A stretch of 64,000 bases of DNA from an uncultured Spirochaetaceae bacterium (GCA_964435795.1 CAYTAT010000006.1:67513-131512), one strand, 5' to 3'. Positions 14,631 through 35,572 are shown, counted from the stretch's first letter. Made by a program: numbers and translations. Notes: a model not told the origin generated them from the sequence alone.

Positions 14631-15002
14631 ATGGCCGAACTCTACGGAGAGTTCCCCGATCGGCTGCGTGGCAATAGCTGGCAGCCCGCGGTGGACATCT
14701 TTGAAACCGGGGATGCCGTGGTTGCGAGGGTCGAACTTCCCGGCGTGAATGGGGGAGATATTCGCGTCAATGTGGACGAAGATTTTCTGCTGATCAGCGG
14801 CATGCGCAGGTTGCCCCCGGGAGCGGATGAGGGAAGGCTTCACCAGATGGAGATCTCATTCGGCCCCTTTCAGCGCAGGGTGAGGATTTCCATTCCCTTC
14901 GAACGGGATGGTGTGAGTGCTCATCTTGAAGATGGCTTCCTCTCGGTCAGCCTGCCCAAGGTGAAACCCAAACGGCATAGCGTGAAAGTGGATACGGAAT
15001 GA
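14631..15002 (+). CDS. Small heat-shock protein, Hsp20/alpha-crystallin family
   Basis: WQPAVDIFETGDAVVARVELPGVNGGDIRVNVDEDFLLISG, a typical alpha-crystallin domain. 19 nt after dnaK. Confidence 0.9.
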   Translation: MAELYGEFPDRLRGNSWQPAVDIFETGDAVVARVELPGVNGGDIRVNVDEDFLLISGMRRLPPGADEGRLHQMEISFGPFQRRVRISIPFERDGVSAHLEDGFLSVSLPKVKPKRHSVKVDTE

Positions 15003-17479
15003 GCGAAGAGCAAGAAGAAAGTGATCAGGAAATCTCGGAAGAGGAGTCGATTGCAGCCGAGTCGAGCCCCGTTACGGGCGGTCTGGAAATTCGAGTTGGC
15101 TCCGGAGCCGGCGAGGGTGAGGAGCCGGACCTCCCGGATCTACCCGATCAGCTGCCCGTTTTGCCCCTCAAGAATACCGTGCTCTTTCCCTTTCTCCTTT
15201 CCCCCCTTCTGGTCAATACTCCCGCCTCCCGAGAGTTGATCGATGCGGTGTTGGTACGGCCCGACCGTCTTCTGGTCTGCGCGGCGATTCGTCGCGAGTT
15301 GGAAGGCCCGCCCATGGGCGACGATGTCTTCAAGGTCGGCTCGGCATTGCGCGTCGTCAAGATGCTGAAATTCCCCGATGGATCCTATCGACTCCTGGTG
15401 CAGGGGGTGGCGCGAGTGGCCATCGATGAGGTCGTTTCGGAGACGCCCTATCTGCAGGCGCGGATCCACAGCCTCGAGGATGAAGGCGATCTGGATTCGG
15501 TTGAGGTGGAGGCGTTGGAGAGGAGCGTATCCCAGCAATTCGCGACCCTGGTGGCCGAGAGTTCGCGTCTTTCGGACGACCTGCAGGTTCTGGTCGCGAA
15601 TCTCGAAGATTCGTCCAAGCTCGCGGATCTCGTCGCATCAAACCTGGAACTGGATGTCTCCGGCAAACAGGAAGTCCTCGAATCCTTGAATGTACCGGAG
15701 CGTTTGCGCCTGGTTCTCGGTCAGTTGACCAAGGAGGGCCAGGCCCTCGAGATCGAGACCGAGATCAAGGAAAAAGTCCAGAGCGAGATGGGGAAGACGC
15801 AAAAGGAATACATTCTCCGTCAACAGCTCGAGGCCATTCGCCGCGAATTGGGTGAGAGCGAAGAGGGCGAGGAGGGTGTGGGTCCGCTCAGGGAAAAGAT
15901 CGAGAGCTCGGGAATGCCCGAGGAAGCCAATAAACAGGCCTCTCGCGAGGTCGAGCGACTTTCCCAGATGCCGCCGGCGGCCGCCGAACATGCGGTGATT
16001 CGAACCTATCTCGAGTGGATGACCGAACTGCCCTGGGCCGAATTGAGCGAGGATTGTCTCGATGTTCACGAGGCGCGGAAGATCCTCGATGAAGATCATT
16101 ATGGGCTCGAGAAAGTGAAGGATCGCATTGTCGAGTACATCGCCGTGCTCTCTCTCAAAAAGGATTTGAAGGGGCCGATCCTATGCTTCGTGGGTCCACC
16201 AGGGACGGGCAAGACATCCCTGGGGCGATCGATCGCACGCGCCCTCGACCGCCAATTCGAGCGGATGTCTCTCGGCGGAGTTCGCGATGAAGCGGAAATT
16301 CGCGGGCATAGAAGGACCTACGTGGGGGCCATGCCCGGACGGGTGATTCAGGCGTTGCGCAAGGTGGGAACGCGAAATCCAGTGATCGTGCTCGACGAAA
16401 TCGACAAGGTGGGATCGGATGGGCGGGGCGATCCGTCATCGGCTCTGCTGGAGGTCCTCGATCCCGAGCAGAATTCGGAATTCAGCGATCATTACCTCGA
16501 AGTGCCTTTTGATCTCTCCCAGGTCCTCTTCATCGCGACCGCCAACATCACTGATCCGATACCCGCACCTCTTCGGGATCGGATGGAAGTGATCGAATTG
16601 CCCGGTTATACCCTTGAGGAAAAGGTGGAGATTGCAAAGCAATTCCTGCTCCCGAGGCAGATCGAAAACAATGGTATCGGGGGAGTGGATTTCGAGCTTT
16701 CGGAGAAGGCCCTGATCCGCCTGATCGAGCGCTATACGCGGGAGGCCGGGGTTCGAAACCTGGAGCGTGAGCTGGGGGCTATCTGTAGAAAGGTCGCCCG
16801 ACGAGTTGCCGAGGGTGAAGAGGTCGATAATTATCGCGTGAGCCCCGAAGACCTGGTGGATTTCCTGGGGCCCAGGAAGTTCGAACCCGAGGTCGCAGAG
16901 GACGATTCAATCCCGGGTGTGGCGATGGGCATGGCCTGGACTCCGGCCGGCGGCGATATCCTATTCGTCGAATCCAGTCGGATGCCCGGAAGTGGACAGC
17001 TGAAGCTGACGGGATCGCTCGGGGACGTGATGAGGGAATCAGCGGAAGCGGCTCGTTCCTGGCTCCGTAGCAATGCCGATGACTTCGCACTCGATTGTGA
17101 GAAGGACTTCGATGAACGCGATGTCCACCTCCATGTTCCGTCGGGTGCGGTCGAGAAGGATGGACCCTCGGCTGGAGTGGCGATGGTCGCGTCCCTGGCC
17201 TCGGTGCTGATGGGTCGTAGAACTCGCCCGAGGACGGCCATGACCGGAGAGATTACTCTGCGGGGCAAGGTCCTCGCGGTTGGCGGAATCAAGGAGAAGG
17301 TGCTCGCGGCCAAGCGGGCCGGCATCGAGCGCGTGGTACTGCCAGAGGAGAATCGGCGCGACGTCGAAGAAATCTCAGCGGAGTTGCTGGAAGGGCTCGA
17401 GCTCAACTATGTGGGGACCATAAGCGATGCGCTTCTTCACACGATTCAGGATGGATCGGCGCATATTCCCGCGGCCTGA
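14999..17479 (+). CDS. lon: ATP-dependent Lon protease (paralog 1)
   Basis: LON N-domain (LPVLPLKNTVLFPF), Walker A GPPGTGKTS, and protease motif DGPSAGVAM. 4-nt overlap with the hsp20 stop. Acidic N-terminal extension. Confidence 0.97.
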   Translation: MSEEQEESDQEISEEESIAAESSPVTGGLEIRVGSGAGEGEEPDLPDLPDQLPVLPLKNTVLFPFLLSPLLVNTPASRELIDAVLVRPDRLLVCAAIRRELEGPPMGDDVFKVGSALRVVKMLKFPDGSYRLLVQGVARVAIDEVVSETPYLQARIHSLEDEGDLDSVEVEALERSVSQQFATLVAESSRLSDDLQVLVANLEDSSKLADLVASNLELDVSGKQEVLESLNVPERLRLVLGQLTKEGQALEIETEIKEKVQSEMGKTQKEYILRQQLEAIRRELGESEEGEEGVGPLREKIESSGMPEEANKQASREVERLSQMPPAAAEHAVIRTYLEWMTELPWAELSEDCLDVHEARKILDEDHYGLEKVKDRIVEYIAVLSLKKDLKGPILCFVGPPGTGKTSLGRSIARALDRQFERMSLGGVRDEAEIRGHRRTYVGAMPGRVIQALRKVGTRNPVIVLDEIDKVGSDGRGDPSSALLEVLDPEQNSEFSDHYLEVPFDLSQVLFIATANITDPIPAPLRDRMEVIELPGYTLEEKVEIAKQFLLPRQIENNGIGGVDFELSEKALIRLIERYTREAGVRNLERELGAICRKVARRVAEGEEVDNYRVSPEDLVDFLGPRKFEPEVAEDDSIPGVAMGMAWTPAGGDILFVESSRMPGSGQLKLTGSLGDVMRESAEAARSWLRSNADDFALDCEKDFDERDVHLHVPSGAVEKDGPSAGVAMVASLASVLMGRRTRPRTAMTGEITLRGKVLAVGGIKEKVLAAKRAGIERVVLPEENRRDVEEISAELLEGLELNYVGTISDALLHTIQDGSAHIPAA

Positions 17480-22340: not shown

Positions 22341-23116
22341 GATGGATTGTTCTCCGTAATGGCATGCGAGATGATTTTCGCGAAACTCATCGGGTCCAGG
22401 CTGGCTCCGCCCACCAGGGCTCCGTCGATATCGGTTTCGGCCAGCAACGCGCTCACATTCGAGGGGTCGACCGAGCCGCCGTATTGAATCCGAATCCGCC
22501 CACTATCCTCTCCGAAGCGTTCGGCCAGACGAGCGCGAATGAAAGCATGTACGGTCTGGGCCTGCTCGGGGGTCGCGGTCAGTCCTGTGCCGATCGCCCA
22601 CACCGGTTCGTATGCTACCACCAGTTCGGCGATTCCGGGAGCGCCCGCCTCGGGCAGGCTCTGCTCGAGCTGATTCCCGATGACCTCCTGGGTCTCATCC
22701 GCCTCACGGGCGTCCAGGCTTTCTCCTACGCAGACGATCGGTCTCAGGCCGGCTTCGAAAACCGCCCGGGCCTTGGTGGCGACCGTTTGGCTCGTTTCGC
22801 CGTAGAGGGCGCGGCGCTCGCTATGGCCCACGATGCAATACTGGCAGCCGACCTCCTTCAGCATGGGGGCCGAAACTTCGCCGGTGAAGGCGCCGGAGGA
22901 CTCGGAGCAGACATTCTGGGCGGCCAATTTGAGTTGGCTTCCCTGCAGAAGAGCCGCCAGGCTCTCAAGGCAGGTGAAGGGGGGAGCGATCGCGATCTCC
23001 GGGCCGAGGGGGTGGGCTTGCGGCAATTGACGAAGCAGGCTCCCGGCGTATTCACGCGCCTCGGCGCGATTCTTGTTCAGCTTCCAATTGGCGACGATCA
23101 GGGGCTTTCGCATCAT
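22337..23116 (-). CDS. tpiA: Triosephosphate isomerase
   Basis: PLIVANWKLNKN, IVGHSERR and AYEPVWAIGTG motifs. The ATG at 23116 overlaps the pgk stop. Confidence 0.95.
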   Translation of the reverse strand: MMRKPLIVANWKLNKNRAEAREYAGSLLRQLPQAHPLGPEIAIAPPFTCLESLAALLQGSQLKLAAQNVCSESSGAFTGEVSAPMLKEVGCQYCIVGHSERRALYGETSQTVATKARAVFEAGLRPIVCVGESLDAREADETQEVIGNQLEQSLPEAGAPGIAELVVAYEPVWAIGTGLTATPEQAQTVHAFIRARLAERFGEDSGRIRIQYGGSVDPSNVSALLAETDIDGALVGGASLDPMSFAKIISHAITENNPS

Positions 23117-24327
23117 TTCTCCAATGCCGCGACGCCCGGGAGGACGATGCCCTGAATGAATTCGAGGGAAGCTCCGCCGCCTGTTGAAAGGTGGCCGATT
23201 TCGGCTCCCAGGCCGAGGCGCTGGATCGCCGCCAGGGAGTCCCCGCCGCCCACGACGGATGTCGCGGAAGACTTCGCGACGGCCTGGGCCACCTCTTCCG
23301 TACCCCGGGCGCAACTCTTGATCTCGAAGATTCCCATCGGGCCATTCCAGAAGATCGTTCGGGCCCGATCGGCCTCCTCGGCGTAGCGGGCGGCCGTCTC
23401 CGGGCCGATGTCGACACCTAGCCAGTCCTCCGGAATCGACTCCACGACGCGGATTTGTGGATCTTCGCTCACTTCTTTGCTGACGCGATGATCCGAGGGC
23501 AGGAGGAGTCTGCAGCCGCTTTCCTTTGCAGCGGAGAGGACGCTTTGGGCATCCTCGATGCGTTCCTTCTCCACGCGGGAGTTGCCCACGGCGTCGCCAA
23601 GGGCGGCCAGAAAGGTGTAGGCCATGGCCCCTCCCACGGCGAGGACGTCGGCTCTCTCGGACAATTTCTGCAACACGCCGAGCTTATCCGAGACCTTTGC
23701 CCCTCCCAGCAGGCAGAGCAGGGGGGTTGCGGGCTCGAGAACCAGCCGGAGTTGTTTCAACTCGTTGCACATCAGGTCGCCCGCAACGGCCGACTCCAGA
23801 TGGGCGACGATCCCGACCGTCGAAGCGTGTGCGCGGTGGGCCGTTCCAAAAGCATCGTTTACATAGAGATCCGCCGAGCGGGCCAGCGCCCTGGCGAATT
23901 CCGGATCGTTTCGCGTTTCCTCCCCATGAAATCGAAGGTTTTCGAGCAGCAGGATCTCGCCGTCCCCGAGTTCGCGAACAGCCGTTTCGACTCCTTCGCC
24001 CACGCATTCACCCGCGAAGGCGACCTCGGAACCCAGGAGATCGGCGAGGGCCCGGGCCACGGGTCGCAGTGAAAGGTCCGGGATGCGCTCGCCCCCGGGT
24101 CTGCCCAGATGCGACGCCAGAACGATTCGGGCCCCGGCTTCACGCAGTCGTCGCAGCGTCGGCAAGGAGGCTCGAATCCGCGAATCGTCCAGAATCTTTC
24201 CGTCCCGGATGGGCACATTGAGGTCCGCCCGAACGAAAACCCGCCGACCCCTCGGGTCGGTGGATGCGTCCTGTTGTGTGGGCGAGAGCCAGGATTCGAG
24301 CGAAGGGGTGGTCAAGAAAGGGTCCAT
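23113..24327 (-). CDS. pgk: Phosphoglycerate kinase
   Basis: RVFVRADLNVP, ASHLGRP and FWNGPMGIFE motifs. The start is ambiguous (ATG 24327 preferred; ATG 24363 possible). Confidence 0.95.
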   Translation of the reverse strand: MDPFLTTPSLESWLSPTQQDASTDPRGRRVFVRADLNVPIRDGKILDDSRIRASLPTLRRLREAGARIVLASHLGRPGGERIPDLSLRPVARALADLLGSEVAFAGECVGEGVETAVRELGDGEILLLENLRFHGEETRNDPEFARALARSADLYVNDAFGTAHRAHASTVGIVAHLESAVAGDLMCNELKQLRLVLEPATPLLCLLGGAKVSDKLGVLQKLSERADVLAVGGAMAYTFLAALGDAVGNSRVEKERIEDAQSVLSAAKESGCRLLLPSDHRVSKEVSEDPQIRVVESIPEDWLGVDIGPETAARYAEEADRARTIFWNGPMGIFEIKSCARGTEEVAQAVAKSSATSVVGGGDSLAAIQRLGLGAEIGHLSTGGGASLEFIQGIVLPGVAALEK

Positions 24328-24433
24328 TTCCTCTAGGGTTCGGGCGCAGCGTGCGGGCGGCATTTTAACGGTGCTCCAACCAATAGACAACGCTGGCTTT
24401 TCTGGATCCGCAGCACCCCGCTACACTAGCCAG

Positions 24434-27070
24434 ATGGGGGATCGTAGCTTCCGGGGCCTGGGCATTGACAGCCTGACAGGTGGTTTCGCGCGCTGGCTGC
24501 AGGGCGGGGCGGAGAATCGAGTCATTCGAGTCGAGCGGATCGTGCTGCTTCTGGCTCTGGTGGCATCGCTCTGGTTCGGAGCGGACAGACTCCTAGGTAT
24601 ATTGGATTCCCAGAGGGCCTTCCCGGTCGAATCGGGTCGGTTTTCCCAGGCCGGCCTTTCCAGATCGGTCGAGATCCTTCGGGACAACAGGGGGATTCCC
24701 CACATCGATGCCGATGTGGAAAGGGATGCCTGGCAGGCGCTGGGATTCGTGCATGCCCAGGATCGTCTGGCACAAATGCTCTGGCTTCGTCGCCTGGCGC
24801 GGGGAAGAGTTGCCGAAGTGGTGGGCTGGAGCGGCCTGGATTCCGATCGGATGGCGCGTACCCTCGGTATTGGCGCGTTGGCGGATCGGGAGTGGTTGAG
24901 GGCACCCGCTCGGACTCGGAAGATTCTCGAAGCCTACTCGGCCGGGTTGAATGCTCGAATCGACGAGTTGAGGCGGTCTGCGGCGGCGCCCCCCGCGGCG
25001 CTTCGGGGCTCACCCGAGGGGATCGAGGACTGGCGCCCCGCGGATTCCATTGCACTTCTCAAGCTGATCGCCTGGAGCAGCGGCAACTCGCTCGAAACGT
25101 CCCTGGCCGTGGAAGACTTGAATGGCTTCCTCGGCTCTCGGCTCTCGCGGCCTCTCGTGCCCACGGGCCATGGGGTGGAGGGGCTGGAGGGCGGTCATGC
25201 GGAGCGCTTCGAAAGATCCGCAGCGTCGCAGACTTCCGGATCGCGGCCTCGGCCGAGCTCGGCGCGACTTCAGTTGGGCGAGTCGACTCGAATCAGCGGC
25301 GGGACGGCCTGGGTCTTGGGGGGGGAGCATACGGCGAGCGGTTTTCCGCTCCTGGTCGCGAGTTTGAATTTGCCCACCACCATTCCCGCCCTTCTGTATG
25401 AGATGCAGCTGAAGAGCGGGGACCTCGACGTGGTGGGCGCCACGATTCCCGGAATTCCCGTGGTCTGGGTGGGCCGAAACCAGCATGTCGCCTGGGCGGC
25501 CATTCCGTCTGGAGCCGTGACGGTCGACCTCTATCGGGAACGAATCCGAGAAACCGAGCAGACTTACCACGACGGCATTCGCTGGCTTCCCCTGCAGAGA
25601 CGGGAGGAGTCGATCCGAATTCGCGAGGGTTCGGGCTCGAGTGAATATGCGATCACGATTCACTCGACTCACCATGGACCCCTTGTCGAAGCTGAACCGG
25701 AGGCTGCAGAGTTCTCGACCACGCGGGCGAGCAGCGAGGGCGAGAATTCCAGAATTGAAGAGAAGGGCCAGCTCGCCCTCGCCTGGACGGGAATGATCAC
25801 GGGGGATGGGATCTCCTCTCTATTGGGCCTGATTCGCGCGCAAAGCGCCGACGCGATTCGCGATGGACTCGCGACCCACCACGAGCCGGTGGTCACCGTG
25901 GTGTACGCGGATCGGAGGGGCACTGCGGGCGCCCAGATGGCGGGTTGGCTGCCCAGGCGTACCCTGCCGTCGAGCTTGATTCCCCTGCCGGGAAAGATGC
26001 GCGTATACGATTGGCGCAAGCCGCTTCGCTACGAGGCCATGCCGGCCGTTCAACTTGGCGATTTCAGGTCCACGGGGCAGGGGGGGGGCGTGAATTGGCT
26101 GGCGGTCGCCGATGGAGAAATCGGAGATTCCGTCGCCGAGGCGGAAATAGAGTGGCTCTGGCGTCCGGGGGCGCGGCTGCGTCGTCTCCGGGAGGGGCTG
26201 ATGGCTCTGACCGCTGGAACGGGGGACTCCGCGGGCGCTGTTTCGAAGACGGGGGGTGTGGGTCTGCGGACGGCCGCCGCGTTGCAGTGGGATGTGGGGG
26301 CGGGTGATGCGGTCGATGTCGTGCCGGCCATCCTGCGCCTGGCGGGCCTGGCCGAGCCCCTGCGGCCCGAAGCAAGGGAAGTGCTCGACATGCTTTCCGG
26401 CTGGGATGGGAATCTGCTCGAGTCGAGTTCCGGGGCTGCAGCGTACGAAATATTGATGCAGAACCTGCTCGAGGTTCTCATCGGACGCGTGCTTGAAGAA
26501 GACCTCTACCGCCGCTACCTGGCGCTGCCCGATGCCCGCCCTCTCGCCATCGTGGCCAGTCTGCTCGTGACTGCGGATCGGCGGCGCTCGTCGGGGGGCT
26601 GGGCCGATCTGGATCGGGTCGTGGCCGGCCTGCACGAGAGTCTGCGCCGCACATGGGTGGGTCTCTCCCACCGGTTGGGGCCGGATCGCAAGGGCTGGCG
26701 CTGGGGTCGACTGCACGAACTCGAATTCCGCCCCCTCCAGGAGGTTTCGGTGGGTCGTGGATCTTCGGCGGGATGGAGCGCACTCGGTGTCGGAGGGGAT
26801 GCGAGTTCAATCTTCACGACCCGAGCCGCGGGGCGGGGAGGGGTACCGCTTTCGACTGCGGCCACCTATCAGTTCGCGATTGATCTCGCGGCACCGAACC
26901 GAATTCTGACTTCCCTCGTCCCCGGCCAGTCCGAACACGAGGGGCACGCCCATTTCGCAGATGGTCTCGAGGCATGGCTGGCGGGAAGGCCGAGTCCACT
27001 GCTGGCCAGTCGCCTGCTCGTAGAGGAAAGTAGCGGCGCCGCGCTTGTCCTCGAGCCGCTGGATCGATGA
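24434..27070 (+). CDS. Penicillin-acylase family (S45 Ntn-hydrolase)-like protein with N-terminal membrane anchor; predicted nucleophile Ser replaced
   Basis: RDNRGIPHIDADVERDAWQALGFVHAQDRLAQMLWLRR is the typical alpha-subunit motif. TM helix IVLLLALVASLWFGA. ATG 24434 chosen because the track ORF 5-prime part overlaps pgk. Confidence 0.8.
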   Translation: MGDRSFRGLGIDSLTGGFARWLQGGAENRVIRVERIVLLLALVASLWFGADRLLGILDSQRAFPVESGRFSQAGLSRSVEILRDNRGIPHIDADVERDAWQALGFVHAQDRLAQMLWLRRLARGRVAEVVGWSGLDSDRMARTLGIGALADREWLRAPARTRKILEAYSAGLNARIDELRRSAAAPPAALRGSPEGIEDWRPADSIALLKLIAWSSGNSLETSLAVEDLNGFLGSRLSRPLVPTGHGVEGLEGGHAERFERSAASQTSGSRPRPSSARLQLGESTRISGGTAWVLGGEHTASGFPLLVASLNLPTTIPALLYEMQLKSGDLDVVGATIPGIPVVWVGRNQHVAWAAIPSGAVTVDLYRERIRETEQTYHDGIRWLPLQRREESIRIREGSGSSEYAITIHSTHHGPLVEAEPEAAEFSTTRASSEGENSRIEEKGQLALAWTGMITGDGISSLLGLIRAQSADAIRDGLATHHEPVVTVVYADRRGTAGAQMAGWLPRRTLPSSLIPLPGKMRVYDWRKPLRYEAMPAVQLGDFRSTGQGGGVNWLAVADGEIGDSVAEAEIEWLWRPGARLRRLREGLMALTAGTGDSAGAVSKTGGVGLRTAAALQWDVGAGDAVDVVPAILRLAGLAEPLRPEAREVLDMLSGWDGNLLESSSGAAAYEILMQNLLEVLIGRVLEEDLYRRYLALPDARPLAIVASLLVTADRRRSSGGWADLDRVVAGLHESLRRTWVGLSHRLGPDRKGWRWGRLHELEFRPLQEVSVGRGSSAGWSALGVGGDASSIFTTRAAGRGGVPLSTAATYQFAIDLAAPNRILTSLVPGQSEHEGHAHFADGLEAWLAGRPSPLLASRLLVEESSGAALVLEPLDR

Positions 27071-28218
27071 AGACTCCAAGTGCTGAATCGGCCATTCTCT
27101 TTGCGGAAGTGCCCAATTTCTATGCGGAAGTCGAGCGGCGGGGGGATCCGTCGTTGCGTCGGCGGCCGCTTCTCGTCGGGGGCGATCCCCGCAGACGGGG
27201 CAAGGTTCAGTCCGTCAGTCCCGAAGGTCGCGCGGCGGGAGTCGAGACGGGGATGTCGATGGAAGATGCCCTGTTGCGATGTCCGGGGGCGATTCGCGTG
27301 GCGACCGATATGAGGCGCTATCGCGAGGCCTCGGGCGAATTGGCGACCCGCATGCGGCAGATTTTTGACGAAGTGGAGCCCGCGGGTCGGGGAGCGGTCT
27401 ACGCAGACGTTCATTCCGGCCCCGCCGAGCCCGAAATCCTGGCCGCAAGATTGATTCCCCAGGTGACGACGCAATTGGGTCTTCCGCTACGGGTTGGCAT
27501 TGCTCCCTCCAAGTTCCTGGCGCGGCTGGCGGCGGAAGAAGCGGGGCCCGGCGGCGTATTCCGTCTGCGTGCAGCCGATGTCGAGGCCTTTCTCGAGCCC
27601 CTGCCGATCTCGCGGCTGCCCCGGGTGGGAAGCAAGACCGAAGCGCGCCTCGGCAACCTGGGCGCGCTGACCATTGGAGATCTTCGCCAACTCGGAAGGC
27701 CCGTCCTGGAAGAGACATTCGGCAATCACGGCCTGGTTCTCCTGGAGATGGCCCGGGGCCAGGACAGGTCGCCGATGCGCCTGGCTCGACACCCACGGTC
27801 TCTGACCCGCACCGAGACCCTGTCCGAGGCATCCGCCGAGGTCGAGTCGCTGGCGGAGTGTTTGCGGCGTCTCGCGGAGAGTCTCGAAGCGAACCTGGAG
27901 AGGCAGGGGCTCGTGGCCGGGCGCCTGGCGCTCAGACTGAGATGGGCTGATGGCAGCGAGACGACGCGATCCACGACCCCGTCGAATCCCCTATCCGGGG
28001 CCGAAGAGATCTACCCCGAAGCTCGGGCTCTGCTCGCGAGAGTCGAAGTCTCCGATCGCATTCGAGGGCTGGGGATCACCGTAGCGGGCCTGAAGCCCTG
28101 CCGGGAGGAAGATCTTCAACTCGATCTCTTCTCCGGACAGCGTCTCCAGGCGGAACTTGCGGGCGGCGGAGCCGGCTCCGGATCTCCCGGGTCTCGAAAT
28201 CGAGGGAGTGATCCGTGA
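27067..28218 (+). CDS. Y-family DNA polymerase (DinB/ImuB-like) protein lacking the catalytic carboxylates; QLDLF clamp-binding motif
   Basis: Collinear with DinB as recalled (LLVGG, GVETGMSMEDA, VGIAPSKFLARLAA, little-finger region). ATGA overlap with the upstream acylase-like gene. Confidence 0.8.
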   Translation: MKTPSAESAILFAEVPNFYAEVERRGDPSLRRRPLLVGGDPRRRGKVQSVSPEGRAAGVETGMSMEDALLRCPGAIRVATDMRRYREASGELATRMRQIFDEVEPAGRGAVYADVHSGPAEPEILAARLIPQVTTQLGLPLRVGIAPSKFLARLAAEEAGPGGVFRLRAADVEAFLEPLPISRLPRVGSKTEARLGNLGALTIGDLRQLGRPVLEETFGNHGLVLLEMARGQDRSPMRLARHPRSLTRTETLSEASAEVESLAECLRRLAESLEANLERQGLVAGRLALRLRWADGSETTRSTTPSNPLSGAEEIYPEARALLARVEVSDRIRGLGITVAGLKPCREEDLQLDLFSGQRLQAELAGGGAGSGSPGSRNRGSDP

Positions 28219-28305: not shown

Positions 28306-28644
28306 ATGCGATCCGGTAGCGAGCGGCGAGAATTTCCGCGTATTCCCACCGATCAGATCATCTGCTTTTCGGAGGGATCGGGTGCTGAGCAGTCGGGCCG
28401 CGGGGTCAATCTCTCGGCTGGCGGCATCTGCTTCACCGCGGTCGCATGCGAGATCGAACTCGGGGAGTTCCTGACCTTGACTTTTCGGGTTCACGGAGAG
28501 GAAGTGACCGCCGGCGGGAGGGTCGTCTGGGCGACGGAAACCGACCCCCTCTCCCTCGAGGTCGGGGTCGAATTTGAAGAAATCGACGCCCGGGGTCGGC
28601 GCTTGATCGAATCTCTTGGGAGCGGGGGCGACTCCGAGGGCTGA
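28306..28644 (+). CDS. PilZ-domain protein (putative c-di-GMP receptor)
   Basis: RxxxR (REFPR) and N-x-S-x-x-G (NLSAGG) motifs with the spacing expected for PilZ. Confidence 0.75.
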   Translation: MRSGSERREFPRIPTDQIICFSEGSGAEQSGRGVNLSAGGICFTAVACEIELGEFLTLTFRVHGEEVTAGGRVVWATETDPLSLEVGVEFEEIDARGRRLIESLGSGGDSEG

Positions 28645-28938
28645 GCCCCAAGAGGCCGGATCGGGAAGTGGGTCTCCTCCGAGATCGCTCTTCCGGGAGC
28701 ATTTGCGACTGCCGCCGGGGTGGATTCCCCGATTCCAGCGCCTGGATCTCTGCGCGGCGGCCGGGAATCGGCGAGTTCTCCAGCCTTGCGTATGACTCAA
28801 ATGCCCGATTTTGCGATGGAAACGCTGTCTTGGGATCTATGTCCGGATCTCGAAGCCGCCCCGATTCCAGATCCCGCCCCCCAAAGGACAGATCGTGGCT
28901 GCTTGACCGCGCTGAAATCGAATGCGAAGGTTTCGCCC

Positions 28939-30171
28939 ATGTCGGATTTTCACCAGACGGGGGTCATCACGGCGCTCCATCGATTGGGCGACCTGAACCT
29001 GGAACGGCTGGAGGGCGAACTCCTACAGTACTCGACGGAGCGCCCCACGGCTCTGGTCTTGCCCTCCCTGTTCAGCGAGACCCGGGGCCCCGCCCTCAAG
29101 GGAATCGTCGAAGAATTGGCTCAGGTGCCCTATCTCCGCCAGTGCGTCGTCAGTCTTTCGGGACCCGCCGATTTCGATCAGTACCGAGAAATGAAAGCGA
29201 TATTCGAGCCGGTGCGATGCCTGGACGGTGGGCCCGCGACCGTCATCTGGACCGAGGGGGCCCGGGTTCGTTCGCTTCTCGATCGTCTGCGCGATGAGGG
29301 GCTCGATCCAGGCCCGCCGGGAAAGGGAAGGGCCACCTGGCTCGCCTATGGGTACGTCCTGGCGACCCAGGAGGCGCGGGTCGTGGCTACCCATGATTGC
29401 GACATTCTCAATTACCGGCGGGAACTCCTGGCGAGGCTCTGTTATCCGACCGCGAATCCGAATATGAATTATGAATTCGCGAAGGGCTATTATGCCCGTG
29501 TCACGGATCGCCTCCATGGCAGGGTGACCCGGCTCTTCATGATGCCGCTGCTTCGCTCGATGAGATCCGTTCTGGGACCGATTCCCGTGCTCGAATACCT
29601 GGAATCCTTTCGCTATCCCCTCGCGGGCGAGTGCTCGATGACCACCGATCTGGTGCGGGCCAATCGAATCCCGGCCGATTGGGGTCTTGAGGTGGGAGTG
29701 CTCGCGGAAGTCTTTCGGAACAGCGCCCTGAAGCGTATCTGCCAGGTGGAGTTGGTCGAGAATTACGATCACAAGCATCGAGAGCTTTCCGAAGATGATG
29801 CCGAGCGGGGCCTTCACCGGATGGTCGTGGACATCGCGTCGTCGGTGATTCGCAATCTCGCGAGCTACGGAGTGGAATTCGAAGCGGGCTTCCTCAATAC
29901 GATGATCGCGGCCTATGTGAGAACCGCCCAGGATGCCATCGCAAGCTATAGCAATGACGCCAAGTTGAATGGGTTGAATTTCGATCGCCACGCCGAGGAA
30001 GTGGCCGTGGAAACCTTCTCAGGGGCCCTCAGGAATGCAGGGCTCGGCTTCGTTCGCGATCCCATGGGGGCCCCCCAGATTCCGAATTGGAGTCGCGTGG
30101 TCTCCGCGGTTCCGGGGCTGCTCGAAGAATTGCGCGATGCCGTGGAAGAGGACGCCCGCGAGGTTGCCTGA
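28939..30171 (+). CDS. GT-A glycosyltransferase, GT81-like (glucosyl/mannosyl-3-phosphoglycerate synthase-like)
   Basis: By-eye correspondence to recalled GpgS motifs: PGKGRATW, DxD-like HDCDIL, GRVTRLFMMPLL, PLAGE, DWGLEVGVL. ATG at 28939 (MSDFHQTGVITALH). Confidence 0.6.
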   Translation: MSDFHQTGVITALHRLGDLNLERLEGELLQYSTERPTALVLPSLFSETRGPALKGIVEELAQVPYLRQCVVSLSGPADFDQYREMKAIFEPVRCLDGGPATVIWTEGARVRSLLDRLRDEGLDPGPPGKGRATWLAYGYVLATQEARVVATHDCDILNYRRELLARLCYPTANPNMNYEFAKGYYARVTDRLHGRVTRLFMMPLLRSMRSVLGPIPVLEYLESFRYPLAGECSMTTDLVRANRIPADWGLEVGVLAEVFRNSALKRICQVELVENYDHKHRELSEDDAERGLHRMVVDIASSVIRNLASYGVEFEAGFLNTMIAAYVRTAQDAIASYSNDAKLNGLNFDRHAEEVAVETFSGALRNAGLGFVRDPMGAPQIPNWSRVVSAVPGLLEELRDAVEEDAREVA

Positions 30172-32881: not shown

Positions 32882-35278
32882 TCAGTTGGCGGTTGGCAGA
32901 ACGGGGGAGAGGGTCACTTCCAGCGCTTCGTCGATCGTGTCGACCAATTGAATATCGAGACGGTCTCGAACCTCTTCGGGGACCTCTCTCAGATCCTTCT
33001 CGTTGCGCCGAGGCATGACGACCGTTTCGATTCCGGCCCGGGAAGCCGCGAAGAGTTTTCCCTTGATCCCGCCTACGGGAAGGATCTGGCCCCGTAGCGA
33101 GATCTCGCCCGTCATGGCCACCAGCGAGCGAGCGCCGCGCTTGCTGAGCACGGATACGATGGCCGTGACCAATGCGATGCCCGCCGAGGGTCCGTCCTTG
33201 GGTACAGCCCCCGCTGGTACGTGGAGATGGATTTCGCCGGGAGAGAAGTCACTCAATTTCAGCCCCAACTCCTCGGCATGGGATCGCACCCAGGAAAGGG
33301 CGGCCTCGGCGGATTCCTGCATGACCTCTCCGAGTTGGCCCGTGAGTCGAAGCCGGACACCTTTTCCGCCGGACATCTTTGCGGCCTCGACGAAGAGAAT
33401 ATCTCCTCCATGAGCCGTCACCGCCAGGCCCACGGCAACCCCTGGCATCTGGGTTCTCTCTGCGGTCTCCGGCAGATGGGGCGGCGGCCCGAGGGCTTCG
33501 GATACGAAGTCTGCGTCGATGAGCAACTGAGTTTCCGCATCCCCCTCGGCGATCCGCCTGGCACACTTCCGCATCAGGGTCGCCAGGAAGCGCTCGAGGT
33601 TTCTGACTCCAGCTTCTCGAGTGTACTCGTTCACGATCTTGACCAATGCCTCTTCCGGGATTTCGATGCGATCCGTTTCCAGCCCGTGTGCAATCAGTTG
33701 GCGAGGCACCAGGTAGCGGCGCCCGATGGCTATTTTTTCGCTCTCGGTGTAGCCCGAGAGTTCGATGACCTCCATCCGATCCAGGAGCGCCGGGGGGACG
33801 GTTGAAAGGGTGTTGGCCGTCGCGATGAAGAGCACGCGGGATAGATCGAAGGGGCATTCCACGTAGTGGTCGCTGAATCTGTGATTTTGTTCGGGGTCGA
33901 GTACTTCGAGCAGGGCGGAGGAGGGATCGCCTCGGAAGTCCGAGCCGAGCTTGTCGATCTCGTCCAGCAGGAAGATCGGGTTGCGGGAGCCCGCCCGCTT
34001 GATGCTCTGGAGGATTCTCCCCGGCATGGCTCCGACATAGGTTCTGCGGTGGCCCCGGATTTCCGCTTCGTCTCGGACCCCGCCGAGTGAGGCCCTGGCG
34101 AATTTTCGTCCCATGGCCCTGGCGATCGATCTTCCGAGCGAGGTCTTGCCGACACCTGGGGGACCGACGAAACAGAGTATCGGAGCCCTGGAATCGGGTG
34201 CCAATTTTTGCACGGCCAGGAATTCGAGAATGCGTTCCTTGATATTCTCCAAACCGTGATGGTCGGTGTCGAGGATCTCCCGGGCGGCCAGCAGATCCAG
34301 ATCGTCATCCGTTTCGATGCTCCAGGGCAGGTCGAGGAGCCATTCGAGGTAGGTTCGGACCAGATGGCGGTCGGGGGCGTGCTGGGGTAGGGAGGACAAT
34401 CTCTTGAGTTCCCGGGAGGCCTGCTCCAGGGCTTCTTCGGGAAGATTGGCGGATTCGAGTTTCTCGTAGAGTTCATCGACTTCCCGCATACCCGAGTCGC
34501 TCTCTCCGATTTCGTTCTGAATTTCCCGCATCCGCGACCGCAACATTCTTTCACGTCTCTTCTTGTCGAGGCCCGAGTTCTCGGCTTCGTCCCTCAGAGT
34601 CTTCTGCGTTTCCGCGATCGTGACTTCGCGCTCGAGTTGGCGCTCAACTACACGAAGTCTTTTGCCAACGTCGGGTTCACGCAGCAATGCGATGGCTTCA
34701 TCCCCGGGGATGGCCAGGTTGGACGCCAGCAGGTCCGCGAGCATTCCGGGATTCGGAATCTCCGCAATGAAACCCTTCCACTCGTCGGGATAGTCGTCCC
34801 GCAGGCCGATGACCTGCTGGGCGAGGTCGATGACCTTCTGCCAGAGGGCATCGACTTCGCTTCCGCCTCCAGACTCCGGGATCGGCGTGAAAGCGATCCT
34901 GAGTTGAGGCTCTTCGGAGAGGTAGGCGTCGAGAGAGACCCGAGCCAGTCCCGCCACCAGAGCCTGTTTGCCCCCGGGCTTCGCGTCCACGATTCGAAGT
35001 ACCCGAACCAGTGTGGCCACTTCGTAGAGGTCAGCGGCCGAGGGGTCCTCGGTATTGGCATCCCTCTGGGAGACGACCAACATGAAGCCCTCGGCACCGG
35101 CCTCCTCGAGCGCGAGGAGCGATTTGGCTCTGCCGATGGTGAGCGGAATGGTTACGCCCGGGTAGATGACGATATCCCGCACCGCGAGGGCCGGCAGAAC
35201 GCGGGGGACATCCAGAGATTCTCCACCGGGCTCGAGAATCTGGACGTTCTGGAAGCCAAGATCGGATTGTTCGGTCAC
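32882..35278 (-). CDS. lon: ATP-dependent Lon protease (paralog 2)
   Basis: LPALAVRDIVIYPG, GPPGVGKTS and DGPSAGIAL motifs. GTG 35278 is preceded by GAGAGG. The track ORF 5-prime extension reads through a tRNA gene. Confidence 0.95.
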   Translation of the reverse strand: MTEQSDLGFQNVQILEPGGESLDVPRVLPALAVRDIVIYPGVTIPLTIGRAKSLLALEEAGAEGFMLVVSQRDANTEDPSAADLYEVATLVRVLRIVDAKPGGKQALVAGLARVSLDAYLSEEPQLRIAFTPIPESGGGSEVDALWQKVIDLAQQVIGLRDDYPDEWKGFIAEIPNPGMLADLLASNLAIPGDEAIALLREPDVGKRLRVVERQLEREVTIAETQKTLRDEAENSGLDKKRRERMLRSRMREIQNEIGESDSGMREVDELYEKLESANLPEEALEQASRELKRLSSLPQHAPDRHLVRTYLEWLLDLPWSIETDDDLDLLAAREILDTDHHGLENIKERILEFLAVQKLAPDSRAPILCFVGPPGVGKTSLGRSIARAMGRKFARASLGGVRDEAEIRGHRRTYVGAMPGRILQSIKRAGSRNPIFLLDEIDKLGSDFRGDPSSALLEVLDPEQNHRFSDHYVECPFDLSRVLFIATANTLSTVPPALLDRMEVIELSGYTESEKIAIGRRYLVPRQLIAHGLETDRIEIPEEALVKIVNEYTREAGVRNLERFLATLMRKCARRIAEGDAETQLLIDADFVSEALGPPPHLPETAERTQMPGVAVGLAVTAHGGDILFVEAAKMSGGKGVRLRLTGQLGEVMQESAEAALSWVRSHAEELGLKLSDFSPGEIHLHVPAGAVPKDGPSAGIALVTAIVSVLSKRGARSLVAMTGEISLRGQILPVGGIKGKLFAASRAGIETVVMPRRNEKDLREVPEEVRDRLDIQLVDTIDEALEVTLSPVLPTAN

Positions 35279-35485
35279 GTTCGAACCTCTCGCGGGGGAT
35301 GCCAAGTTGAACCCCGATGCTAAGCACTGCCCGGCGGGGGTCAAGCACCGATGAGGCTGCCTTGGGTCGAATTCCTCGAAATTGGATCTTGAGATCAGTC
35401 GAGTTCTTCCCACACGGATTCGGCCATATCCTAGGGGGCATGGGGCCCCACGGGCTCGGAGGAATCCCGGCTCCGACGGGTGGCT

Positions 35486-35572
35486 TGGTGCCCGGGACTG
35501 GAGTCGAACCAGCACGTCCTTGCGAACACTAGATTCTGAGTCTAGCGCGTCTACCAATTCCGCCACCCGGGC
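35486..35572 (-). tRNA. tRNA-Leu (anticodon CAG)
   Basis: Hand-folded. Sequence GCCCGGGTGGCGGAATTGGTAGACGCGCTAGACTCAGAATCTAG...GGTTCGACTCCAGTCCCGGGCACCA. Long variable arm, encoded CCA. Confidence 0.95.

Follow-up and report, generated by a model that had tools for sequence, protein, structure and literature searches.

A conserved family of DinB-derived proteins with replaced catalytic residues and a retained clamp-binding motif in uncultured Myxococcota

What could a protein with the fold of DNA polymerase IV (Pol IV, DinB) do once its catalytic residues have been replaced? This question is raised by a gene, here denoted iPolY, that is located in a 64,000-nucleotide (64-kb) stretch of DNA (hereafter, the window) from an uncultured Spirochaetaceae bacterium (GCA_964435795.1 CAYTAT010000006.1:67513-131512). 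A preliminary description of the window, based on an alignment by eye, depicted the gene product as an inactive homolog of the Y-family polymerases (PolY) that retains an intact clamp-binding motif, is encoded outside an imuA-imuB-dnaE2 cassette and is distinct from ImuB. Inactive homologs other than ImuB, which are closer to the PolY core, have been identified in two systematic surveys; every group for which a complex has been proposed (ImuB1/2, scDinB2-like, gbDinB2-like and iPolY+ImuB-C) has a link to DnaE2 and a RecA-NT motif, and the only role assigned to inactive bacterial Y-family proteins is that of hubs that bring DnaE2 along with RecA or ImuA to the sliding clamp (PMC6511836, PMC12926913). 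Inactive PolY homologs are already known; what is new in the family described here is a compact, conserved clade of stand-alone dead DinBs that carry the clamp motif only.

Active site and clamp-binding motif of the iPolY protein

The window protein is a member of the Y-family superfamily (IMS fold). The matches to the respective Pfam domains are all above the cut-offs (IMS, 97 bits; IMS_HHH, 31.6 bits; IMS_HHH_1, 33.8 bits; IMS_C, 67.6 bits), and the domain order is palm/fingers, thumb with the helix-hairpin-helix (HhH), little finger and the C-terminal clamp motif. AlphaFold2 modeling with the family alignment yields the full four-domain DinB fold, with a predicted local distance difference test (pLDDT) score of 91.3 and a predicted template modeling (pTM) score of 0.82, and with disorder only in the Gly/Ser tail; the top Foldseek matches are bacterial DinB/Dpo4 structures with a probability of 1.00, a value also reached by Rev1. 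The Pol IV models of NCBIfam match the window protein with about 200 bits, the best of them, NF002677, with 206.6 bits (cut-off, 256), and all 10 matched Y-family models (nine for Pol IV and one for UmuC, the latter with 26 bits) score below their own cut-offs.

The HMMER alignment of the window protein to Escherichia coli Pol IV, for which the Protein Data Bank (PDB) entry 4ir1 was the reference, is free of gaps at both catalytic motifs. The segment IIHVDMDCFFAAVE of the window protein pairs with ILFAEVPNFYAEVE of E. coli Pol IV, with D8 replaced by E14 (codon gaa, 27106-27108) and D10 by P16, and EPLSLDEAYLDV pairs with EPAGRGAVYADV, with D103 replaced by G109 and E104 by A110. This alignment reproduces the one made by eye in the preliminary description, in which the coordinates of the gene, of the E14 and G109-A110 codons, of the clamp motif and of the overlap with the upstream gene were all exact (Table 1). 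The accompanying statement that all three catalytic carboxylates are substituted is literally correct but calls for a qualification: in the triad D8/D103/E104, two carboxylates are gone, whereas the third substitution is the conservative change of Asp to Glu, which leaves a carboxylate in place at E14. At D103 and E104, no Asp or Glu reappears in the profile alignment. Other nucleotide-binding residues have changed as well (K157 to G160, Y46 to P52 and S139 to R142); R49 is still Arg in the window protein, whereas 54 of 120 family members have Leu there. Thus described, the protein does not have the full set of catalytic carboxylates and deoxynucleoside triphosphate (dNTP) ligands of an active Pol IV, falls below the NCBIfam cut-off, and cannot form a canonical two-metal polymerase site.

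The same replacements recur across the family. In a MAFFT alignment of 120 members with E. coli DinB and Dpo4 (reference sequences, the catalytic columns of which match the HMMER alignment to 4ir1), the D8 column contains Glu in 92 members and the D10 column Pro in 115, whereas the D103 column is occupied by Gly in 86, Glu in 20 and Asp in 10 members, and the E104 column by Ala in 79 and Ser in 21. At the position of K157, a Lys in 100% of the active DinBs, 83 of the 120 family members contain Gly, and at the steric gate, F13, Tyr is present in 118, the corresponding Y19 being invariant in a 40-sequence family alignment. The residues D8, D10, Y46, D103, E104, K157 and P158 are 100% conserved in 29 active DinBs and are all different in the family. 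The substitutions and the C-terminal motif recur throughout the family, far beyond what chance would produce. Moreover, the family possesses fixed residues of its own near the old pocket, namely, V15 (in 114 of the 120 members), P16, D40, K43, Q48, G107 and R238, with V15 and P16 invariant in the 40-sequence alignment. With these family-specific residues fixed around it, the former nucleotide pocket has been remodeled, not just relaxed.

The pentapeptide QLDLF is located where QLVLGL is found in E. coli DinB, and Q351, L352, L354 and F355 are among the 25 invariant columns of the 40-sequence alignment. In the comparison of loci, which covered the best 80 genomes (up to 85 loci of about 20 kb each, +/-10 kb round the gene), all full-length members examined (84 loci) carry the pattern Qxx[LM]F, typically 4 residues from the C-terminus; six loci carry the variants QLPLF, QIPLF, QLLLF or QPELF. 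Judging from these alignments, the clamp-binding pentapeptide, reported as intact in the preliminary description, is the part of the protein that varies least, and its conservation leads us to predict that QLDLF binds the beta-clamp. The tail that follows the motif has a median length of 4 residues in the family. The longer tail of the window protein is not conserved and has pLDDT values of 46-59 in the AlphaFold2 model; Gly/Ser/charged tails of 20-28 residues occur in the window protein as well as in its close relatives P0008, P0009, P0012 and P0019, and are missing in most of the family. The window tail has no Pfam domain match and contains neither DUF4113 nor DUF6504.

Descent, distribution and selection

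By descent, the window protein is a derived Pol IV. It aligns with E. coli DinB over residues 10-354 with a BLASTP score of 130 bits, and E. coli DinB in turn scores 226 bits on the hidden Markov model (HMM) of the family. Like E. coli DinB (4ir1) and TTEDbh (7yll), to which it aligns colinearly from end to end with 28-33% identity, it has the four-domain fold, a clamp peptide at the matching C-terminal position and no long C-terminal extension. In contrast to active DinBs, the catalytic and most of the dNTP-binding residues are replaced in iPolY, and no SOS context is recognizable in the largely coding upstream regions that were scanned. The nearest matches outside the family are active DinBs; among the closest of these, no in-lineage active paralog was identified, and the one named cluster belongs to Gemmatimonadota. 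In a distance-based neighbor-joining (NJ) tree that included DinB-type sequences only, the family is monophyletic in 300 of 300 bootstraps. These relationships place iPolY in a single clade, one that arose in an uncultured Myxococcota lineage as a branch of the active core DinBs.

The relationship with ImuB is far weaker. A tblastn search of plasmids for an annotated ImuB brought up DinB and UmuC types along with one scDinB2-like gene next to dnaE. Our verified ImuB reference was instead an unannotated stretch of Sinorhizobium meliloti pSymA that was confirmed by NCBIfam; this cassette consists of an ImuA-like open reading frame (ORF), a 505-aa ImuB and a DnaE2 that reaches 1370 bits against the model for error-prone polymerases (cut-off, 939). 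The BLASTP alignment of the window protein with this ImuB is limited to 33.5 bits over 169 aa, and ImuB itself matches E. coli DinB with 42 bits; on the Pol IV model NF002677, the window protein scores 207 bits and the verified ImuB 37 bits. On the HMM of the inactive family, ImuB scores 52 bits, and on that of the active DinBs, 47.5 bits. In one NJ tree, ImuB and an odd sequence grouped beside the inactive clade (19/200 support); we rejected this placement as long-branch attraction because ImuB scores equally poorly on both HMMs and is closer to E. coli DinB than to the window protein by BLASTP. Queries with ImuA, ImuB, DnaE2, a second DnaE2-like protein and the S24 peptidase produced zero tblastn matches in the 64-kb window and at the 84 loci, and the window contains no ORF of at least 1000 aa. 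Neither DUF4113 (the RecA-NT-bearing region) nor DUF6504 was detected in any of 40 family members, whereas in the controls, a UmuC-like protein matched DUF4113 with 62.7 bits and ImuB matched DUF6504 weakly. Hence both the location outside an imuA-imuB-dnaE2 cassette and the separation from ImuB that had been proposed for this gene are upheld; neither BLASTP nor the HMM scores place the protein inside ImuB.

With ImuB, then, the window protein shares the missing catalytic residues and a consensus clamp motif, but it has no ImuB-like C-terminal region, no imuA or dnaE2 neighbors (+/-10 kb) and no specific affinity to ImuB sequences; nor does it qualify as a UmuC (Pol V), with no S24 gene nearby and no DUF4113. 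ImuB is a clamp-bound, non-catalytic hub that requires a C-terminal region of about 168 aa (PMC10421592). Both ImuB and iPolY combine a Y-family fold devoid of catalytic carboxylates with a functional-looking clamp motif, and both are presumably non-catalytic and clamp-tethered (PMC10421592, PMC6511836); however, iPolY is about 120 residues shorter than the 505-aa pSymA ImuB and has no ImuB-C or RecA-NT region. The resemblance of the two, a dead active site plus a clamp motif, is a case of convergence, not kinship.

The scDinB2-like and gbDinB2-like iPolYs resemble the present family in that they are inactive, are close to the PolY core and keep the clamp motif, but they are encoded beside DnaE2 and reportedly possess a RecA-NT motif (PMC6511836, PMC12926913), whereas our family has neither an adjacent DnaE2 (84 loci) nor RecA-NT/DUF4113 (40 members). 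In addition, the scDinB2-like reference lacks most of the N-terminal palm, whereas the window protein is full-length. A 417-aa "hypothetical protein" encoded on the Streptomyces avidinii plasmid NZ_CP108617.1 (L086 2369-7077) is an N-terminally truncated Y-family homolog that matches the Pol IV model from about position 85 on, and its gene abuts a dnaE-type gene; judging from the sequences, this pair fits the published scDinB2-like iPolY-DnaE2 arrangement.

A search of 5.8 billion proteins retrieved 389 homologs of the window protein at E <= 1e-20. The best 120 of the 389 show 47-61% identity, are about 355 aa long and come from metagenome-assembled genomes (MAGs) of Myxococcota or "Deltaproteobacteria". 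A scan of species-representative genomes found relatives in at least 272 species-level genomes, the best 80 of which are all uncultured Myxococcota MAGs with loci that encode orthologs. The MAG copies at NCBI are named "hypothetical protein", and many family members are labeled "DNA polymerase-4" at JGI. When the family profile was compared with 1.84 billion representatives, about 30 clusters (50% identity) scored at least about 334 bits, all with the inactive signature; below about 330 bits, nearly all matches are fully active DinBs with D-D-[YF]-R-D-E-K. The exceptions in this lower range are fragments of family members, along with P0173 and P0196, a pair of unusual inactive sequences. P0173 (430 aa) was considered as a divergent, N-extended member and rejected as a frameshifted or mis-called fusion of an acylase C-terminus (WRWGRLHPLHFEPF...) to iPolY; this artefact still reflects the adjacency of the acylase and iPolY genes. 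P0196 (471 aa) is DinB-like, with V-D-Y-A-D-R-G at the seven diagnostic columns and a partly disrupted site, an N-terminal extension of about 130 aa and QLSLF at its C-terminus. Its score on the HMM of the active DinBs exceeds that on the family HMM, and it probably represents an independent inactivation event. Weak matches to Pfam DUF1805 (PF08827) are seen in 14 of 40 members (best E = 7e-5), and none in the window protein.

The genes of the family are under purifying selection. For 53 ortholog pairs of 70-99% identity, the ratio of nonsynonymous to synonymous substitution rates (dN/dS), calculated by the Nei-Gojobori method, has a median of 0.168 (interquartile range 0.152-0.206) and a maximum of 0.35, and the coding stretch is uninterrupted at 80 of 85 loci. 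Conservation by domain in the family versus the active DinBs is 0.66 versus 0.72 for palm/fingers, 0.57 versus 0.59 for the palm, 0.58 versus 0.54 for the thumb and 0.51 versus 0.54 for the little finger. All four domains, including the DNA-binding thumb and little finger, are under selection.

The genomic neighborhood

In about 80 species-level genomes, the iPolY gene belongs to a block in which secG-tpiA-pgk on the minus strand is followed by genes for an acylase, iPolY, a PilZ-domain protein and a protein similar to glucosyl-3-phosphoglycerate synthase (GpgS) on the plus strand (Table 1), whereas the flanks of the block (sugar transferase, GT1, Lon) vary between genomes; the genes for phosphoglycerate kinase (PGK), triosephosphate isomerase (TIM) and SecG are similarly arranged in related loci. 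The acylase, for which D-succinylase is the best solved relative, was reported as an acylase-like partner translationally coupled to iPolY; the ATGA overlap and the Penicil_amidase match bear this out, and translational coupling of the two genes is the likely consequence of their arrangement. Among 81 loci with an upstream acylase, there is a 4-bp NTGA overlap in 40 and a 1-bp overlap in 6, the rest being mostly gaps of 14 bp or less, in counts for which the choice of start codon favored the candidate closest to the acylase stop. In some lineages, the acylase and iPolY are part of a longer overlapping chain, with a gene for holo-ACP synthase (ACPS) that overlaps the acylase start by 4 bp (L001, 6976-7395; L032); ACPS is absent from the window.

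The PilZ gene is found downstream in nearly all loci, including those of two of the three most divergent members that were looked up. The GpgS-like gene is the most conserved one in the block (57-86% identity across loci); its product scores 350 bits on GpgS_Meth against a cut-off of 700, with a match that starts at residue 76, and has no Pfam domain, and the true start of the gene is probably near 28939. The gene of the most divergent family member, P0145 (L089 2378-4541), which ends in QPELF, lies divergently beside gap-pgk-tpiA with no acylase in between. Because this member has no acylase neighbor, the coupling with the acylase is widespread but not obligatory, and because it adjoins gap-pgk-tpiA, the oldest constant neighbor of iPolY is the glycolytic operon and not the acylase.

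Table 1. Features of the iPolY locus, with positions counted from the first nucleotide of the window
Feature	Position	Strand	Basis
iPolY gene (Pol IV-like, inactive), 383 aa	27067..28218	+	ORF, Pfam, NCBIfam, AlphaFold2, Foldseek
E14-V15-P16, in place of the D-x-D metal-binding motif (E. coli D8-M9-D10)	27106..27114	+	HMMER alignment
G109-A110, in place of catalytic D103-E104	27391..27396	+	HMMER alignment; codons gga gcg
G160, in place of the triphosphate-binding Lys (E. coli K157 / Dpo4 K159)	27544..27546	+	alignment columns
QLDLF, consensus beta-clamp-binding pentapeptide, residues 351-355	28117..28131	+	codons caa ctc gat ctc ttc
Gly/Ser-rich tail of 28 residues, C-terminal to the clamp motif	28132..28215	+	disordered; sublineage-specific
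Penicillin-amidase-family (N-terminal nucleophile hydrolase) acylase gene, N-terminal hydrophobic anchor	24434..27070	+	Pfam Penicil_amidase, 450 bits
ATGA start/stop overlap, acylase-iPolY	27067..27070	+	acylase TGA at 27068-27070
PilZ-domain gene, 88 bp downstream of iPolY	28306..28644	+	Pfam PilZ
GpgS-like gene	28720..30171	+	NCBIfam GpgS_Meth
pgk, divergent, first of the pgk-tpiA-secG housekeeping operon	23113..24390	-	ORF translation

The acylase of the window is itself unusual. HMMER pairs its GG-TAW with G-SNNW of D-succinylase, which puts Gly (G290, 25301-25303) at the position of the Ser nucleophile and of autoprocessing, and about 20 residues downstream, in ASLNLP, S-L-N-L replaces N-D-P-H. 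Most of the acylase orthologs keep G-S-x-x-W and D-x-H, with Gly in the nucleophile column in about 11 of 80, the subclade of the window. The window acylase may therefore be catalytically impaired; alternatively, with a shift by one residue, Thr291 may serve as the nucleophile.

The wider window encodes housekeeping proteins, namely, DnaK, two Lon paralogs, an OmpA-like protein, glycerate kinase-like and RNase R-like proteins, and ATP sulfurylase. The two full-length Lon paralogs are encoded within 20 kb (14999-17479, plus strand; 32882-35566, minus strand), as is also the case in L003; the annotated start of the second overruns the tRNA-Leu(CAG) gene at 35486-35572, and the true start therefore lies downstream of this tRNA gene. 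Two tRNA-Leu genes delimit the block. A scan of the upstream regions, most of which include coding sequence (in other loci, ACPS or the acylase N-terminus), for 11 known consensus types of the LexA box found none of them present or enriched; only YGTTCAG, a 7-mer core fragment of the Myxococcus xanthus box, is enriched, at 0.63 versus 0.25 per kb. A scan for promoters and terminators yielded sites no commoner than in shuffled sequence.

Possible functions of iPolY

We believe, with somewhat better than even confidence, that iPolY serves as a regulator or adaptor that binds DNA and is tethered to the clamp but has no catalytic function. Under this scenario, a full-length, stably folded DinB derivative that has lost nucleotide addition would be anchored via QLDLF to the sliding clamp, at gaps or where primer and template meet. 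Without extending the primer, it would fill the polymerase-binding cleft and occupy the DNA end. As a gatekeeper or adaptor, it would decide which polymerase or repair factor gains access, and it would probably be made constitutively, from a housekeeping operon and coupled to the acylase, rather than as an SOS cassette. The binding of clamp and DNA, the constitutive expression and the gatekeeper or adaptor role are what we infer. A model for a clamp gatekeeper with a dead site and an intact clamp motif is provided by E. coli DinB(D103N), which, when expressed from a plasmid, sensitizes cells to DinB-cognate lesions in a manner that depends on the clamp motif (PMC3096655). A second precedent is ImuB in its role as a non-catalytic hub at the clamp (PMC10421592). 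DinB(D103N), however, is a harmful laboratory point mutant, whereas iPolY is a natural, long-lived family with a remodeled pocket that is under selection. More specifically, and only tentatively, we envisage a stand-alone, constitutive dead DinB that acts as a clamp gatekeeper, or in which the old pocket (P16, D40, K43, Q48) has become a new site for a ligand or partner, in either case independently of DnaE2, RecA and ImuA.

Several considerations weigh against a regulator at the clamp. Binding of the clamp and of DNA is predicted from the conservation of motif and domains only, and the hosts are all uncultured. The neighbors of iPolY, that is, the periplasmic-type acylase, PilZ, GpgS-like and sugar transferase genes, have no known link to replication, and therefore the context neither supports nor explains a role on DNA. 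Furthermore, by analogy with DinB(D103N), constitutive blocking of the clamp should carry a cost, such that a compensating benefit or tight dosage control would have to exist.

Could iPolY instead be the hub of a split ImuB-type mutasome, one that brings to the clamp an error-prone DnaE2 encoded in another part of the genome, in company with RecA or ImuA? A dead active site combined with a clamp motif is common to iPolY and ImuB, every inactive PolY group with a proposed complex is tied to DnaE2 (PMC6511836, PMC12926913), and split cassettes are known in mycobacteria (PMC6511836). Yet the family proteins end about 4 residues past the clamp motif, whereas ImuB needs its C-terminal region of about 168 aa (PMC10421592); DUF4113 and DUF6504 are found in 0 of 40 members, with positive controls; dnaE2, imuA and S24 genes are missing within 10 kb at the 84 loci and in the 64-kb window; no specific sequence affinity to ImuB is detectable; and no known type of LexA box (11 consensuses, in scanned regions that are largely coding) is seen upstream. 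A hub of this kind is, in our opinion, rather unlikely. Slightly lower still we rate a co-option away from replication, in which iPolY would be tied to its partners, namely, the acylase, the PilZ c-di-GMP receptor, the GpgS-like protein and the polysaccharide genes, with QLxLF or the pocket binding another target. The acylase-iPolY-PilZ-GpgS block is kept in about 80 species-level genomes while its flanks rearrange, the start and stop codons of the acylase and iPolY overlap at about half of the loci, and the new invariant residues of the old dNTP pocket (P16, D40, K43, Q48) are not what drift would leave behind. Nonetheless, QL[DE]LF matches the textbook clamp motif and occupies the DinB-homologous position, the thumb HhH and the little finger are conserved as in active DinBs, the acylase is apparently exported or membrane-anchored whereas iPolY has no signal sequence, the coupling is not obligatory given the most divergent member without an acylase neighbor, and the block sits among housekeeping genes, where synteny may be merely inherited.

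The two remaining explanations concern the catalytic site itself. That iPolY is still a DNA polymerase, one that employs non-canonical residues such as E14 and another acidic residue, would agree with the carboxylate of E14 in 92 of 120 members, with Glu or Asp in the D103 column in 30 of 120 and with the invariant steric-gate Tyr (Y19); but D10 is replaced by Pro in 115 of 120 members, D103 and E104 are Gly and Ala in most, the K157 and Y46 ligands have been lost, and many members have Leu in place of R49. To our knowledge, no Y-family polymerase functions without the two-metal carboxylate site, and we regard residual polymerase activity as highly improbable. The notion of a decaying, functionless, pseudogene-like relic of dinB could draw on the loss of catalysis, on scores below every curated Pol IV cut-off and on the "hypothetical protein" naming at NCBI; it is effectively refuted by a dN/dS of about 0.17, intact ORFs at 80 of 85 loci, 25 invariant columns that include the clamp motif, a confidently predicted fold and conservation on par with that of active DinBs.

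We found no paper describing the iPolY family in the literature. Both systematic surveys drew on complete reference genomes (PMC6511836, PMC12926913), and a lineage represented by MAGs only is unlikely to have been part of their genome sets. For the genomes of these Myxococcota, the immediate implication is that the JGI label "DNA polymerase-4" overstates the capacity for translesion synthesis (TLS); the simple signature [FY]A-E-V-P-x-F-Y, combined with QLxLF at the C-terminus, would flag members of the family. In at least 80 species-level genomes, purifying selection maintains these proteins without the partner modules of a mutasome, either in the family proteins themselves or at the nearby loci. 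If iPolY acts alone, this would be a second and simpler way to use the TLS-polymerase fold without catalysis, namely, to regulate the occupancy of the clamp or of the primer end.

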